Origin: Amoebophrya sp. A120
Taxonomy: Eukaryota > Protista > Dinoflagellata
Assembly: GCA_905178155.1 (NCBI GenBank)
Contig: CAJINV010000110.1
Span: 1 to 6,402 of the forward strand
DNA: 6,402 nt
Direction of reading: 5' to 3'
Shown here: piece after piece, positions 1 to 6,402 of the stretch
How the letters are laid out: each line of letters begins with the position of its first letter
Position numbering within the stretch: the first letter of the stretch is position 1
Position numbers and translations under genes: made by a program
Notes under the pieces: model-generated
The model's database searches: none
What the model was told of the DNA's origin: nothing
The model's input: only the letters and a program-made list of their open reading frames with translations

Positions 1-1022
1 GGTTTTGGAAAGCATTTCCAACGCCCGGAACACCGCCACCTGGTTATCAGATGCAAAAGTGTCTGGGTCTGGAACAAAGCAACTTGTCATGCTAAATCTG
101 AATCATGTAAAAATCTGTGTTGCATCATTACCAAAAGCCGTCCACTTTTGACCTAATCGGGAGGCAGTTTCTCATGCGGGGTAGGCATGATAGAACTCGC
201 ACAGAATCTGTCATGCTATGTCCTACATACCAGACCCCATGGGTCATGGAAACCCTGCATGACAAGTCTGGCATTCTTCCAGACCCAAACATTTTTACAT
301 TTGATACTGGTCGATCGCGGATAAATGCACATAGCCGGAAATTTCCCGGTCCAAGTACGTGAACAGCCGTATCCTATGTAAAAACATCCCCACACCAATG
401 TCAAGATGGAAAATGTGCTAGACAAATCAACCAGCTTTGGTTGTTTCGCATGACAAATTTGGCCCCGTAGTGTGATCCTGTTTAGTTAGCTCCAGCAGCA
501 TAACAGGTCTAGCAGGTCATGCTGATTTGAGCATCACAAAATCCAAAACACGACGGGGAAATGCTTCGCATGGGGCTTCACATGAGAAACATTTTTGCCC
601 TGCAGATTTGCATGACAACTTTGGGGTGGGGATGTTTTTACTCAGAATATGCCGTCGTGGATTGCCGTCGTACCGGATCTCCCGGCAGAGCTCCCGCCAC
701 TGCTCGAAATCCAGGTTCACGCCGGAATACTGGTATGCAATACAAATTTAGCGTAGGTAGTTGCACGACGAAGCAGATGCACAAAGTGCATGACAAATTC
801 CGGCACCAGCATTAGAGCTGAAAGTTGTCATGGTAAATGGGCTGGGGAAACAGAAGATCTGTCATCGTCATGCAATAAGGTCATCATGATCATCTGCATC
901 TGTGTGTACTACGGTAAGAAGAACTTTGCTCTAGATAACTGCAAGATAATCTGCATAAACGCCTGCTTCGTCGATCCGTAGCGGACGTGAAGTCGCTCGA
1001 TGAACAGTTTCAAGTGGTTTTT
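1..1022 (-). CDS. Partial multi-exon gene, EF-hand-like repeat protein. Exons approx. 1022-942, 732-654, 368-311, 43-1; 5' part not found, 3' part runs off the window
   Basis: Removing three TIR elements plus one TSD each (209, 285 and 267 nt) gives 87 stop-free codons: KNHLKLFIERLHVRYGSTKQAFMQIILQYSGVNLDFEQWRELCREIRYDGNPRRLFTYLDREISGYVHLSAIDQVAVFRALEMLSKT. LFTYLDREISGYVHLSAID resembles a degenerate EF-hand loop. Exact junctions can slide within the TSDs. The product call is by motif resemblance only. Confidence 0.75.
45..306. mobile_element. Introner/MITE-like element E1 (262 bp), intron of the EF-hand-like gene
   Basis: Perfect TSD ctggt at 40-44 and 307-311. Left arm tatcagatgcaaaagtgtctgggtctggaacaaagcaacttgtcatgc; reverse complement of right arm tatcaaatgtaaaaatgtttgggtctggaagaatgccagacttgtcatgc. 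Confidence 0.9.
370..649. mobile_element. Introner/MITE-like element E2 (280 bp), intron of the EF-hand-like gene
   Basis: TSD agccg (365-369) / tgccg (650-654), 4 of 5 identical. Left arm tatcctatgtaaaaacatccccacaccaa; reverse complement of right arm tattctgagtaaaaacatccccaccccaa. Confidence 0.88.
734..937. mobile_element. Degenerate introner/MITE-like element E3 (204 bp), intron of the EF-hand-like gene
   Basis: TSD actgg (729-733) / actgc (938-942), 4 of 5 identical. TAT at both termini and an eroded IR (tatgcaatacaaattt...gcagatg vs tatctagagcaaagtt...gcagatg). Internal gcatgacaaat and ttgtcatg motifs. Removing 209 nt (not a multiple of 3) joins two open frames. Confidence 0.75.
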
Positions 1023-1079: not shown

Positions 1080-2824
1080 GTTCGGGTTCCCGGATGATGT
1101 CGGACCCGTTATTCGCAGCAACACCGGCGCTGCCCCCAAAGCCCGAGGAAAGAACTCTCCATTCGTCACTTTCAGTTTCATCACATCCAATCTCCCATTT
1201 GCAGCCCGGTCCCCCGACTACAGCGCGAGCAAAGAGACCCGCTCTCTGCTGGTTCAAACAAAAAAACAAGAAGAATCTCATACTATTCTACAGATGAATT
1301 TGGAAACACATCAAACGAAATAAAGAAAAAGAAAATTATTATACAGGAAGAAGTACTGAAACTCAAGAAAGATGAACAAGCAGAGGTCTCGTCTCCCGTC
1401 ACTATCAATAAACCTATATCGTGAATACCAGCCTGCTCTATGATACGAGAATGTGCAAATGGTTGTTCATAAACGGCTTTCTTGGTCGGATCGAAATTTC
1501 GAGTCTGGGTACTAGTTCACTTCTATCTTTACATTTGCAGACTGGGATGATCGTGGAGATCCGACAGAGATTTTGTTGGCTGTAATATCGTCGGATCTGT
1601 GGCATTTAGCACGAAAAGACTTTCCTGGTGCAGATCTCTCTCCAGCATCAACTTCTGCTTCGTGTCGAAACAAGATTGAGACCGTTCTTGTCGGATCGCG
1701 GTCATTCTCTACTTTTCATTCACATTCTAGTAGGGAAAGGTATACAGATTTATGCTCTTAAACGAAGAGCGCCATGCGGTTGCGGCCAACAACAAAGTAC
1801 AAACTACACGATGTGATCGAACAAAGCTGCCAAATGAATTTGCCACGAGCTGGACAAGTTTCAACACGGCACCGTGTCCTGCACTACACTGGAAATTTAG
1901 TTTTTTCGCACGACTCACCTTTGAGTTTTCCGCGTATTTCACACATATAAAACATCCAACAAGGTTGGACATTTCGGGTGGTGGAGGTGATGTAAAGTAA
2001 GTATTATACATAGTCCTACCTCCTTCCTCTAGTGCTGTGTTTGCTGAGTGCGTGCTTTATTTTGTTTGTGAAAGTTTTTGATGAAACGCCGATCACCAGC
2101 AAGTATTCATTGGGTGAATAGCAGGCGCTCGTCCTCCAGATCGAGTAATTCTTTGTAGCTGTATTTCCCTGGAATTGACGTGGTACTTTGTACTACATTG
2201 CTTTTCAACATCGTGTACTACTTGGCAGCTCTGGTTGCATTCTCACATTAATAGAATACTGGCTCTTGATGTTCACTTCTTTAACAGTACAATGGCCTTA
2301 TCTTATTTTCTGCCGAAGCAGAAAAATCTTCATGCGACATTTTTGATTCATCTTTCCGTATCCGTTGACCACCACATGCAGCACATACGATGAAGGTCTT
2401 GTTTTTTAGTACCATACTTTGTAAAAAAGTACGACAAAAACTACTAGTTGTGTGCATTGTGTTCATTTTCGAGGTTAATGCTGTGGCGTGTCTTATGTTG
2501 ATGTTCTGTGGTTGTAGTAGTGTTTCCGTTCTTCTTTTATTCCGTGTTAGATATGGTCATGCTGACATAAAAATGACAATGACCCTCTACTGTTCCGTCT
2601 GTAATTAGCAGTGAACGACGTCCCAATTTATTCCGTGACGACGAGCAGGGAGGCATACAAACGGAAAAATCTCGAAAAATCTTCTTATATATCTACTTTC
2701 CCGCGTTGATGTTCATGTTCCATTTCGACTCCCGAAGTTTAAAGCATCAATCTGTCCTCCCCCTCTTCTTCTCATACCAGATTGACCAAGAAAAGACCCA
2801 ATTTACATTTAGCACTGAAGAAAT

Positions 2825-3784
2825 TTAGTGCTTCTTGCGCTGGGCGGCAATCTATGAACTGCAAAAGTATCGCACACGTATAAATGCATTACAAATTTTC
2901 TCAGCATGAGAAATAAAATTTGTAATGCTGATTTGCCTTGAGCTTGACAAAGAAATTTGTAATGCAAGACCAGCATTTATACGAGTACGATACTTTTGCA
3001 CAGGATACAATCGCCTCGGTCATCTCCTCACGCTTCTTCTTACCGCGCTTGTGCGTGCCCAACCTATAAAAGTGCACAACTCCCCCTCCCCCACATTTGT
3101 ATTGCATGAACAGCAACACAAGCAACAGCAGAAAAGGGGCCTTCGCATGACAAATCTACATGCGGATTGTAGTACTATTTGAGGTTCCAAAATTTGTCAT
3201 GCTAACAATGCTTACGTGTGAGTTTGGTATTTTGCATTACAAATGAGGGGGAGGGGGAGTTGTGCACAGTCATACAACCGCTTCTTGGCGTACTTCAACG
3301 CACGCTTCAGGGAGTATTAAATGCAAATATGTCTGGGTCTGGAGGGATGCAAGGTTTGTCATGCACATTTTGCATATCTCCTGATGTCTGTGATGCCTAC
3401 CCTAGCATCACATATTTTTCGAGGACTTCCTGATGCCTGTACCGCATGAGAAATGCCCTCGCACCGTGGCAAAAACTGGACCTCTTTTTCTGTTTATGCA
3501 ATACAGATTTTTGTAGAATCCAAATGCAGCATCACAAGTTGCATCCTTCCAGACCTACTAGACATATTTGCAATGCATAGGGAGGAGGCGGACCCCATCT
3601 TGATGAGCTCCATGACACGACGTTCATAGGGCGCGAAGCCCGCGGTCTCGCGGACCACCTCGCGAACGAGGGCGACTTTGGAGGAGAGCTTGCCCTTCAT
3701 ATTGGAGGGCTTTTGCTTCAGGGTGCGCACCGTGGTGACGTGACCACGTTCGCGGCCAGCGGCAATTCCGGAGCGGGGCGACAT
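2825..3784 (-). CDS. RPL36: 60S ribosomal protein L36 (eL36), 4 exons approx. 3784-3584, 3313-3279, 3063-3012, 2851-2825; 104 aa
   Basis: Spliced translation MSPRSGIAAGRERGHVTTVRTLKQKPSNMKGKLSSKVALVREVVRETAGFAPYERRVMELIKMGSASSLKRALKYAKKRLGTHKRGKKKREEMTEAIAAQRKKH*. It carries the eL36 motifs VREVxGFAPYERR and KRALKxAKKRLGTHKRGKxKREE and has normal length. ATG at 3784-3782, TAA at 2827-2825. Confidence 0.97.
2853..3007. mobile_element. Introner/MITE-like element E5 (155 bp), RPL36 intron 3
   Basis: Perfect TSD caatc at 2848-2852 and 3008-3012. Left arm tatgaactgcaaaagtatcgcacacgtataaatgc; reverse complement of right arm tatcctgtgcaaaagtatcgtactcgtataaatgc. Confidence 0.93.
3065..3274. mobile_element. 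Introner/MITE-like element E6 (210 bp), RPL36 intron 2 (GT-AG intron 3278-3064, 215 nt)
   Basis: Perfect TSD caacc at 3060-3064 and 3275-3279. Left arm tataaaagtgcacaactccccctcccccacatttgtattgca; reverse complement of right arm tatgactgtgcacaactccccctccccctcatttgtaatgca. Confidence 0.93.
3315..3579. mobile_element. Introner/MITE-like element E7 (265 bp), RPL36 intron 1 (non-canonical)
   Basis: Perfect TSD gggag at 3310-3314 and 3580-3584. Left arm tattaaatgcaaatatgtctgggtctggagggatgcaa; reverse complement of right arm tatgcattgcaaatatgtctagtaggtctggaaggatgcaa. Same IR family as E1. Confidence 0.93.
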
Positions 3785-5710
3785 GGCTTTGCGGTTTTGA
3801 TGTTTGGAGGTAAGTAGCAAGAAGAGGACAAAATGAAGAATAGATTTGCTCACGGTAAACTTGCAGGAGAGAACGCAAACGATTTCTCTATGCAAACTGA
3901 TAAATCTGGTTGAGCAGAAGCTCGGCCTGGAGGAAAAAAATCAAGGTGACATCGATAAATTTCATCAATTCGCAAGAAATTTTATGAGCCTTCTTCCATG
4001 CAAGACTACTTATTTCGCCACACGGATTGGATTTGGAACACGTCGTCGAAGCCACCGGATCGAAGATTTTTCTGCCTTTACAAACACAAACAGGGTCCTC
4101 ACGGATCTCGATTTTTCTCTTTTTTTCGGTCAACATTTCAACCATCGAAAGCACCAATGGATTTTCTTTCTGTGTTGCAGCTTCTGCTTCCTACTCATTC
4201 AATCATCATCGTGTTCATGAGGATCTTTATTTTCTGTGGAGAGTTGTATCAATTTAAATTTTCGAATTTTTCTAGGCGTGATTTTGATACTTCTACTCAC
4301 CAAGATGTAGTTCCACCGACGAGGACCTCACCTGGCGATGAGAATGATGTTGTGGGCTCTTTACTGAGTGATGGAAGAACAGGTGGAGCTTTTTGTTCCT
4401 TTCGAATTATGGGAATGGCGATGGCATAATTCTCTTGGATATCGCAGTCGTCCTCGAGCACCAGCGCCACAAGCCGGAGAATAATCGATCTGAAACTTCT
4501 TTCGATTTCCTTACCGCAACAAGGACATCGTGGTCTTTTATACAAATGCAAAAATCTGGTGGCGCTGAAGATCATCGATCGATCCTCATAGTCATGGGCG
4601 GCCAACTTTGGAGAAATATTTAGCAAATCGAGTTCATCAACAAGGTAGTTGCAGAGGCGCTTCAGGTGCCGAGTCCACCACGCAAGATGAAATAGTACAA
4701 CGCGTGGAGGCGCCGCAGCAGCGCAACCCAGAGTCTTTCTTCGGTCTGAAGACCCTCCTATTGCAAATTCTACTAGGAAGCTCAAGTCAAACGAAATAAT
4801 AATGGTTTTCGTTGTGTCTAGCAATATCAATCAAGTCAAAGCAAAGCTTATCTCCTTAAGCTAAAACGTTTTCGATTCATCATCAAAAGGTAGCGGTCGA
4901 GAAAGGTACTACGGCTATTCTGAAATTCTGTACTCTGGGTTTCGTCATTTGTTGCGTTTTTGTTCTACTCCGGACGTGCTGGTGTCATCGGTCATTGATA
5001 AAGTTTAGGTACACTGCAAAGTGCATAGAAGATATTTGAAGGAGCAGTGTAACTGTAATACTTCGCATTCATTTTCACTTTCTCAGCATTGCATTACTGT
5101 GTTGATTCGGTTTTGAAATTTGGTTTTAGTAGGGGTAAATAAGCAAACAAGTAAACAGAAGCTCAACTAGGCGCACGTCTCTTTGTGCGTCGAAAATAAA
5201 CGTCTTTCAAGCAGCGCCGCGCGCCGGCTAATAGAATTCCTGGTGACCACGCTTGCGCCGCTTGAGACGAGTTGGTGTATTATACAGGACATTATCAGCG
5301 ATGCATTCAAACAACAAGATTGGCACCTTCTTGACGAGGCCCTTTAATTTTCTGCATTATTGAAACAAGAGCGAAAAGAACTTCCGAAGGATGATGGATG
5401 GCGTGACGCTACGAGGGCGGTTGTTCTACTGGAGTGGTCGTAAACGTAGTCAGCACACTAAATATCAATTACTCCTCCTCCCCGAAGACGGCCTGAAACT
5501 CCTTAACAACTGAAACCCTGTCACGATCATCACCTGCTACTAGGAAAGTAAAAGTTAAAGTATAGTAGATTATTAGTAGATGATTGATTCGCGAATTACA
5601 CGACTAGTACTGTCCGGGTTCTTGCACCGGCAGTACCTACTGGGATTTAAAACAGACGCCACATCATTCAACACGGCTCGCCGGTTTGAAAATCCCCTTT
5701 GACCGGTTCT

Positions 5711-6286
5711 TTAATCCATTAGATCCCCTCCGCCCAAACCCTTCAACAAGTCTCCGTCTCCGCCACTCCCAGACCTCGCTTTTATCGGAGGCGGCCGCGG
5801 TTGCAGCCGGTCTAACTTCGTCCCGCCGGCGGCCGCCCCGCCGCCGCCCGCCGCGCCGCCCCCACCTAGTTGCCCCTGGATCCAGGAGAAGACGGGAATC
5901 GCGTCGGCCTTCTTCTGGACCTTGGCTTTCATACGGTCGCTACTCCGCTATGCATTGCAAAAGTGTCGCGCGTTGTACTAGTAAAAATAGCATCACAAAT
6001 TTTGGCAAGAACAAAAGTGGAAGTTGTAATGCTGTTTCAGGTTTGGAAAGAGATTTGTCATGCATGAGTGCAATTTCAACGAGTCGTGCGATACTTTTGT
6101 AATGCATATCCGCTCCACATGGACCATTTCGTAGAGCATCTGCGTCGCCCGGTTCCACTCGTTATCTAGCACATGGTGCCGCGGGTTCCAGTGCGACCGC
6201 AAGTCGTCCGTTAGTTTTACCCCCTCAAACGCCGGCCCGCGCTGGAAGGTGTTGCTGTGGGCGATGCGAACTTCGTCGAGCGAGCT
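5711..6286 (-). CDS. Last two exons (approx. 6286-6113 and 5947-5711) of a hypothetical protein with a Gly/Ala-rich C-terminus
   Basis: GC-rich, coding-like sequence. Removing E8 plus one TSD (165 nt, containing an in-frame stop) gives SSLDEVRIAHSNTFQRGPAFEGVKLTDDLRSHWNPRHHVLDNEWNRATQMLYEMVHVERSSDRMKAKVQKKADAIPVFSWIQGQLGGGGAAGGGGAAAGG...GGDLMD*. No family recognised. Confidence 0.75.
5823..5863. repeat. GC-rich (CCG)-like low-complexity tract encoding GGGAAGGGGAAAGG on the minus strand
   Basis: ccgccggcggccgccccgccgccgcccgccgcgccgccccc read directly from the sequence. Confidence 0.7.
5949..6108. mobile_element. Introner/MITE-like element E8 (160 bp), intron of the hypothetical gene
   Basis: Perfect TSD tccgc at 5944-5948 and 6109-6113. 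Left arm tatgcattgcaaaagtgtcgc; reverse complement of right arm tatgcattacaaaagtatcgc. Confidence 0.9.
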
Positions 6287-6287
6287 G

Positions 6288-6402
6288 TATGAACTGCAAA
6301 AGTATCGTACTCGTAGTAATGGCAGTCATGCATTACAAATCTTTTTCTTAAGGTAGATCCGCATTACAAATTTCATTTCTCATGCTGCGAAAATTTGTAA
6401 TG
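6288..6402. mobile_element. Introner/MITE-like element E9, partial (runs off the window)
   Basis: Begins tatgaactgcaaaagtatcg, identical over 20 bp to the E5 left end. Contains gcattacaaat twice and atttgtaatg. Predicted TSD agctg (6283-6287). Confidence 0.85.

Follow-up and report, generated by a model that had tools for sequence, protein, structure and literature searches.

In Amoebophrya sp. A120, according to the parts of the genome report available to us (Farhat, 2021; PMC7789003), 65% of introns are non-canonical and 35% are GT-AG, in gene models that were built on transcript alignments. The same source describes a family of introner elements with 29,850 members, recognised by inverted repeats starting with TAT and by direct repeats of 3-5 nt, and finds this repeat layout in common with 15% of the canonical introns. 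A T at position +2 occurs in all nine predominant non-canonical motifs (PMC7789003, Table S4). Its spliceosome was found to be nearly complete, with 83 of 89 proteins and the U2, U4, U5 and U6 snRNAs; the U1 snRNA was not detected and the minor snRNAs were reported absent (PMC7789003). No cognate transposase-coding parent is reported for A120 in the available text of that paper. A TIR family with Copia/Gypsy-like frames has been described from A120 (PMC12130899) and is not linked here to TAT...ATA ends; in Dataset S2 of that study neither the organism name nor the two end motifs were found. Other Amoebophrya strains are reported to have GT-AG introns and a U1 snRNA (PMC12005148), and the available text of a further paper (PMC11453091) merely repeats the A120 figures.

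We analysed a window of 6,402 nucleotides of the A120 genome (the whole of the stretch studied, contig CAJINV010000110.1), in which a gene for ribosomal protein RPL36 starts at position 3784 on the minus strand and has three inserts inside it, each starting with TAT and ending with ATA, with inverted ends and with a copy of one 5-bp word on either side. Exon 1 (3579..3784, minus strand, coding, and including the upstream repeat copy) is 100% identical to the 104-aa A120 protein P0001, the best of 22 hits from 23 candidates, on which Pfam recognises Ribosomal_L36e. It is followed by element 1, a 265-nt introner with terminal inverted repeats (3315..3579), between the upstream (3580..3584) and downstream (3310..3314) copies of its target duplication, CTCCC on the minus strand. 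Exon 2 (3275..3308, minus strand; 34 nt in the last register) and exon 3 (3008..3059, minus strand; 52 nt) are separated by element 2 (3065..3274; 210 nt, duplication GGTTG), and the coding part of exon 4 with the stop codon (2825..2847, minus strand) lies beyond element 3 (2853..3007; 155 nt, duplication GATTG). Element 3 has no GT-AG, GC-AG, GA-AG or AT-AC register, and element 2 has a single GT-AG register (3278-3064). In addition to this full register, element 2 carries a second GT one base before its TAT, and in the register proposed below elements 2 and 3 both read GT-TT.

For intron 1, the first-pass annotation had claimed a direct repeat at the borders and no canonical solution at the junction. 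The direct repeat stands, with a length of 5 bp, the sixth repeated base being a coincidence. Recomputing the seven precise registers, each of which removes 270 nt, gave CT-TA, TC-AC, CC-CT, CC-TC, CT-CC, TA-CC and AT-CT, none of them GT-AG, GC-AG, GA-AG or AT-AC. Intron 1 has neither the GT-AG or GC-AG ends typical of the U2 type nor the precise AT-AC register looked for in the U12 type, and Rfam gave no match in the whole window at the gathering score that would mark a group I or group II self-splicing intron. Reading through the intron runs into a stop codon at 3496-3494, a forced AT-AC join removes 265 nt and is 5 nt short, and the nearest GT-AG join removes 289 nt and shifts the frame, all as annotated; overlooked were in-frame imprecise joins, for example GC-AG 3571-3305, which removes 267 nt, and AT-AC 3574-3314, which removes 261 nt. 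The intron folds into a long stem (z -5.49; none of 200 shuffles was equally stable), and across the window an exact 5-bp flanking repeat was found at five of ten inverted-repeat pairs, where 30 simulated windows gave an average of 0.

Precise removal of every insert, with one repeat copy kept, yields exactly the annotated protein P0001. Evidence for such removal was sought in sequencing runs: X1, X3, X5 and X8 were compared with the stretch, out of ten listed, of which seven hold the stretch and none of those seven is recorded as RNA. X1 and X3 count as RNA only by the guess of the tool, and X5 reads as DNA. One contig of X1 (depth 29.2) and one of X3 (depth 82.8) agree with 2700-2847 and 3579-3900 at every letter, and the 86 letters between these outer exons, known by count only, equal exons 2 and 3 after precise removal (34 and 52 nt). 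Contigs of X5 (depth 28-37) cross the exon-element borders unbroken, with the inserts retained. The only raw RNA run compared, X8, gave one read of 3.3 million and is uninformative either way. The identical annotated A120 protein and the locus-specific contigs of joined length in two runs support the claim of the annotation that the introns are removed precisely, by a non-canonical route, from a functional gene, and removal very probably takes place at the RNA level. The joined contigs also reach about 780 letters past 2700 (window 1900-2700), which suggests either that the 3' untranslated region is long or that another transcript overlaps.

The lengths of these contigs bear directly on whether the join could instead be an imprecise canonical one, or whether RNA editing could create canonical ends, which is the least probable of the explanations that we weighed. 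In-frame GC-AG and AT-AC joins do lie nearby, and possible editing has been reported for 3-4% of A120 intron borders (PMC7789003). Nearby imprecise joins, however, predict 67, 89, 91 or 95 letters between the outer exons, with 89 for GC-AG 3571-3305 and 95 for AT-AC 3574-3314, both with a match running beyond 3579, whereas the contigs have 86 letters and a match that stops at 3579; the GC-AG join would also delete K70, a residue invariant in 16 of 16 aligned proteins, and editing is too rare to account for 65% of introns.

The annotation had also allowed for expression from an intronless paralogue. A second copy of RPL36 does exist, so that this proviso holds in part: the same RPL36 protein is found under two A120 accessions, which belong to different contigs, and in the region of 3275-3313 a loose end in X3 encodes the same ten residues with 7 of 30 letters changed, all of them synonymously. 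The contig taken as the second copy has a depth of 1514.9 in X3, versus 82.8 for this locus, and of 8.68 in X1, versus 29.2, which makes the ratio of second copy to this locus about 18:1 in X3 and 1:3 in X1. This swing may reflect stage-specific use of the paralogues, and in some samples this locus may supply the smaller share, with its own joined form present in both X1 and X3. That the copy studied here is dead or silent, and the protein made from the paralogue, could draw on the shared protein and on the roughly 18-fold deeper paralogous contig in X3, but we regard it as very unlikely: the X1 and X3 contigs with the letters of this locus, untranslated flanks included, have the joined length; the RPL36 exons are intact; and the paralogue differs at the base adjoining the repeat, so that a chimeric path would need the words of this locus across the junction.

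The same depths speak to excision from DNA, in which the elements would be lost in some stage or cells, like the internal eliminated sequences of ciliates, and the joined contigs would be DNA. The guessed status of X1 and X3 leaves room for this, as does a 40.6-kb record held by X1. Against it, the unequal ratios of the two gene copies in X1 and X3 are as expected of RNA, as is the paucity of element contigs, outnumbered about 40- to 65-fold by those of X5 (267 contigs were placed on the stretch in X1 and 152 in X3, versus 10,035 in X5), and the exon-element borders are unbroken in the DNA-like X5; we consider excision of this kind highly improbable.

The window has further elements outside RPL36. 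An element at 45..306, in the neighbouring EF-hand protein gene, is 69% identical to element 1, and one at 5949..6108 is 69% identical to element 3; the 5-bp duplication is exact in both, and neither offers a canonical register on the coding strand. In two others, in the neighbouring gene, the duplication copies differ, and both differences alter a residue. At 370..649 the copies differ at sense position 5, and the residue of the A25 orthologue is that of the downstream copy; at 734..937, where the arms of the element have decayed (11 of 22 ungapped), they differ at sense position 1, and the orthologue residue is that of the upstream copy. This comparison was set down before its result, with the A25 orthologue P0023, rather than RNA, as its reference. 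If both elements share a single register, the orthologue residues place the cut after base 1, 2, 3 or 4 and exclude either end of the element. From the letters of two junctions, in a piece of a gene that may be a truncated duplicate, this suggests a cut position inside the duplication.

Precise removal is favoured by the same orthologue. When the three left-gene elements are taken out precisely, 70 of 87 positions are identical in a gapless match, while nine shifted joins reach 22-62, and for the right-hand element the figure is 30 of 45, against 14-18; in all four of these additional window elements the join to the orthologue is gapless only on precise removal. A protein search for the neighbouring gene, in the range of 80-2000 aa, found nothing. 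The element at 734-937 keeps its TAT...ATA and joins gaplessly despite its decayed arms, and the terminal triplets may outweigh the long stem. Positions 1-1022 and 5783-6295, on the minus strand, match a 2108-aa A25 EF-hand protein at residues 1204-1300 and 1979-2088, and the order of these matches implies two EF-hand gene copies around RPL36, which would stem either from an artefact of the assembly or from a duplication, tandem or partial, with its breakpoint in an element. A lone element arm at 1024-1083 has no partner arm or matching 5-mer downstream, and the match of the left gene to P0023 starts right at this arm (about residue 1213). Another arm, of the element 3 family, runs off the end of the window (6288-6402).

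Element 1 belongs to a repetitive family, as the summed depth in X5 indicates (up to 639,000 over an element arm, versus about 28 in unique sequence). A search pattern made from the ends of element 3 retrieved at least 127 metagenome loci, 118 of them on contigs prefixed JACKZZ01, and had no match in viral contigs. The JACKZZ01 assembly is dense with elements, 71-89% identical to those of the window in the best BLAST hits, and may come from an A120-like parasite. Element 1 has BLAST matches in 33 of the 127 listed loci (best 82% over 262 nt) and element 3 in 116 of the 127, which were retrieved by the ends of its own family. Among the loci listed, 105 of 123 flanked elements have TAT...ATA ends, though the search pattern did not specify them, and 6 of the 18 without such ends lie outside the JACKZZ01 assembly.

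What our analysis adds to the published description is the regularity of the insertion site. Among the loci listed, 75 of the 105 TAT...ATA elements have an exact 5-bp duplication and 98 of 105 one with at most one mismatch, versus 2 of 2000 in a mismatched-pair control. Duplications of 6 bp and of 4 bp were also tried and found in none of the 105. The duplicated word has no sequence bias. Of the elements with exact duplications, 58 of 75 have no GT-AG, GC-AG, GA-AG or AT-AC on either strand, and the 17 with a canonical option occur at the chance rate (22.6%, as calculated for random sites). A broader calling of elements gave 134, of 100-450 nt in length, with 93 exact duplications; here GT-AG is possible on the inferred coding strand in 2 of 41, against 3.1% expected. 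When elements are oriented by open frames, which is approximate, the 23 polar ones among 31 divide 11:12 between the orientations, and the insertion phases of the 31 are 10:12:9. On the plus strand, mismatches between duplication copies were more frequent at position 5 (14) than at position 1 (3), an excess that was gone on the inferred coding strand (2, 3, 1, 1, 2).

Open frames are also longer after precise removal than when one nucleotide too many or too few is taken out (n=119; p = 1.5e-5 and 1.9e-4), a first test by frame threshold having been weak (47 versus 40 and 39 of 88). At locus L071 an LMF1 domain runs on in register across an element (profile 1-102, then 105-161) whose coding strand offers no canonical site; in a Pfam search of 84 exon pieces from 42 loci this was the only colinear case, one other locus (L065) having WD40 repeats on both sides and most having no family. 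A protein search with an exon of locus L052, in the range of 343-2000 aa, found nothing. Between the two ends, positions 1-3 pair in 93-98% of elements, 8-19 in 98-100% and 4-7 in 13-56%, figures that are not independent of the calling, in which the paired positions were partly used.

With inverted ends, a target duplication of fixed length and no coding capacity, element 1 has the features of a MITE, and it is likely a non-autonomous DNA transposon and an Amoebophrya introner. Five of six features of A120 introners that we looked for were found in it: it lies in an A120 gene, has non-GT-AG ends, a TAT inverted repeat with an A run and a direct repeat within 3-5 nt, and is repeated in the genome. 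On the sixth, RNA-seq support for the junction, the evidence consists of the contigs of exact joined length from two runs that are probably RNA. Intron 1 is real, was described correctly and falls into a class already published; the annotation had implied that the case is rare, which does not hold, non-canonical introns being the majority type in A120 (PMC7789003). Both the class and the gene product are already published, so that the finding itself is not new, and the 5-bp rule or the cut register may already stand in the supplementary figures S19-S25 of PMC7789003.

As to how such an element arises and is removed, its anatomy suggests that a transposase or integrase making 5-bp staggered cuts, with no target preference, would have inserted it; Copia-type integrases make 5-bp target duplications. 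In the RPL36 pre-mRNA the inverted ends would pair into a stem that juxtaposes the two repeat copies, and a cut at one fixed offset in the duplication, after base 1 to 4 and most probably after base 4, would let the intron start with N-TAT and leave a single copy of the repeat, whatever its sequence. Guidance of the removal by the paired ends is likely; pairing in a stem is nevertheless indistinguishable from recognition of the DNA ends by a transposase, positions 4-7 pair poorly, and the arms of element 734-937 are decayed. Catalysis might then fall to the U2, U5 and U6 snRNAs of a U1-less spliceosome, the least certain step.

We give somewhat less than an even chance to this reading as a whole, in which element 1 is a TAT...ATA transposon, precisely removed by a cut set from its paired ends, probably by the U1-less spliceosome. 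The part of the spliceosome in it rests on the nearly complete set of spliceosomal components in A120 (PMC7789003), on the T at +2, which fits an intron beginning one base before TAT, on the mixture of canonical and non-canonical introns in one class and on the precedent of Fritillaria. Against it stand the lack of GT or AG enrichment, which a spliceosome might favour, and the circumstance that the T at +2 may be the pick of an aligner among equivalent registers.

Nearly level with this reading, and in our estimate also short of an even chance, is removal of the same element with the same precision and the same guidance by paired ends in RNA, but by a nuclease-ligase pathway that releases a circle or a linear piece, as has been proposed for Euglena. 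Neither end shows a preference for any splice dinucleotide, and both orientations are equally frequent; in Euglena the position of a cut follows from its spacer to a paired motif, and factors outside the spliceosome are suggested by the authors (PMC12501133). The retention of a spliceosome says little here, since it is needed in any case for the 35% of introns that are GT-AG (PMC7789003). Speaking against a nuclease-ligase are the leading A120 motifs, which have a T at +2 (PMC7789003), and the Fritillaria introns of similar origin, which are reported to be spliceosomal (PMC11282704); a literature search, covering sources available in part, found no such enzyme. A bolder version, that A120 has a second, splice-site-free pathway which reads nothing but the paired TAT/ATA ends of its own transposons, cuts at a fixed offset in the 5-bp duplication with non-spliceosomal enzymes and amounts to a ruler code that arose independently of that in Euglena, we hold to be unlikely. 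If it were true, any insertion, in either orientation, would be erased from mRNA scarlessly.

Whichever enzymes act, a cut whose place is set by the ends, with no regard to sequence, would account for the tolerance of tens of thousands of transposon insertions into coding sequence. The literature search, in the texts available, found no test of the mechanism by which elements are removed in A120. The RPL36 locus offers a good assay, with one GT-AG-capable element and two non-canonical ones that have the same ends in one short gene, and at elements with mismatched duplication copies, RNA data that already exist could show cheaply where the cut really falls.

Compared with the described systems, the RPL36 elements are closest to the A120 introners (PMC7789003), with which they share the organism, non-canonical ends, TAT inverted repeats, a less conserved middle, an A run and direct repeats at the borders. 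Those introners average about 240 nt and spread like transposons (PMC7789003), in which there is no difference of class from element 1. They differ in that the text describes repeats of 3-5 nt at variable positions (5 bp in the legend of Fig. S19), whereas here the repeat is strictly 5 bp and abuts TAT...ATA. The available text of PMC7789003 does not state a fixed cut register for the introners, and it reports fewer introners in ribosomal protein genes of A120, whereas RPL36 has three.

Beyond Amoebophrya, the nonconventional introns of Euglena (PMC12501133), and those of diplonemids (PMC12621601), are similar in having no GT-AG, paired ends and a suspected MITE origin. Euglena differs in lineage, in its CDG/CHG motif, in spacers of 3 and 5-6 nt and in a purine at the start of the next exon, and its code was tested by knock-in (PMC12501133); we found nothing comparable for Amoebophrya in the sources at hand. 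In Polarella, Symbiodinium and Aureococcus, too, the introners are TIR transposons that duplicate their target and turn into introns, some of them in either orientation; their splice sites (GT, GC or GA, and AG) come from the element ends or from a target that is itself biased (bioRxiv 10.1101/2020.10.14.339549), whereas here the target is unbiased and the sites are at chance level. Finally, the introns of Fritillaria borealis are also MITE-derived, with inverted repeats and target duplications, and mostly non-canonical; they keep AG-AC and AG-AT ends and are reported to be spliceosomal (PMC11282704), while the elements described here have no preferred pair of ends.
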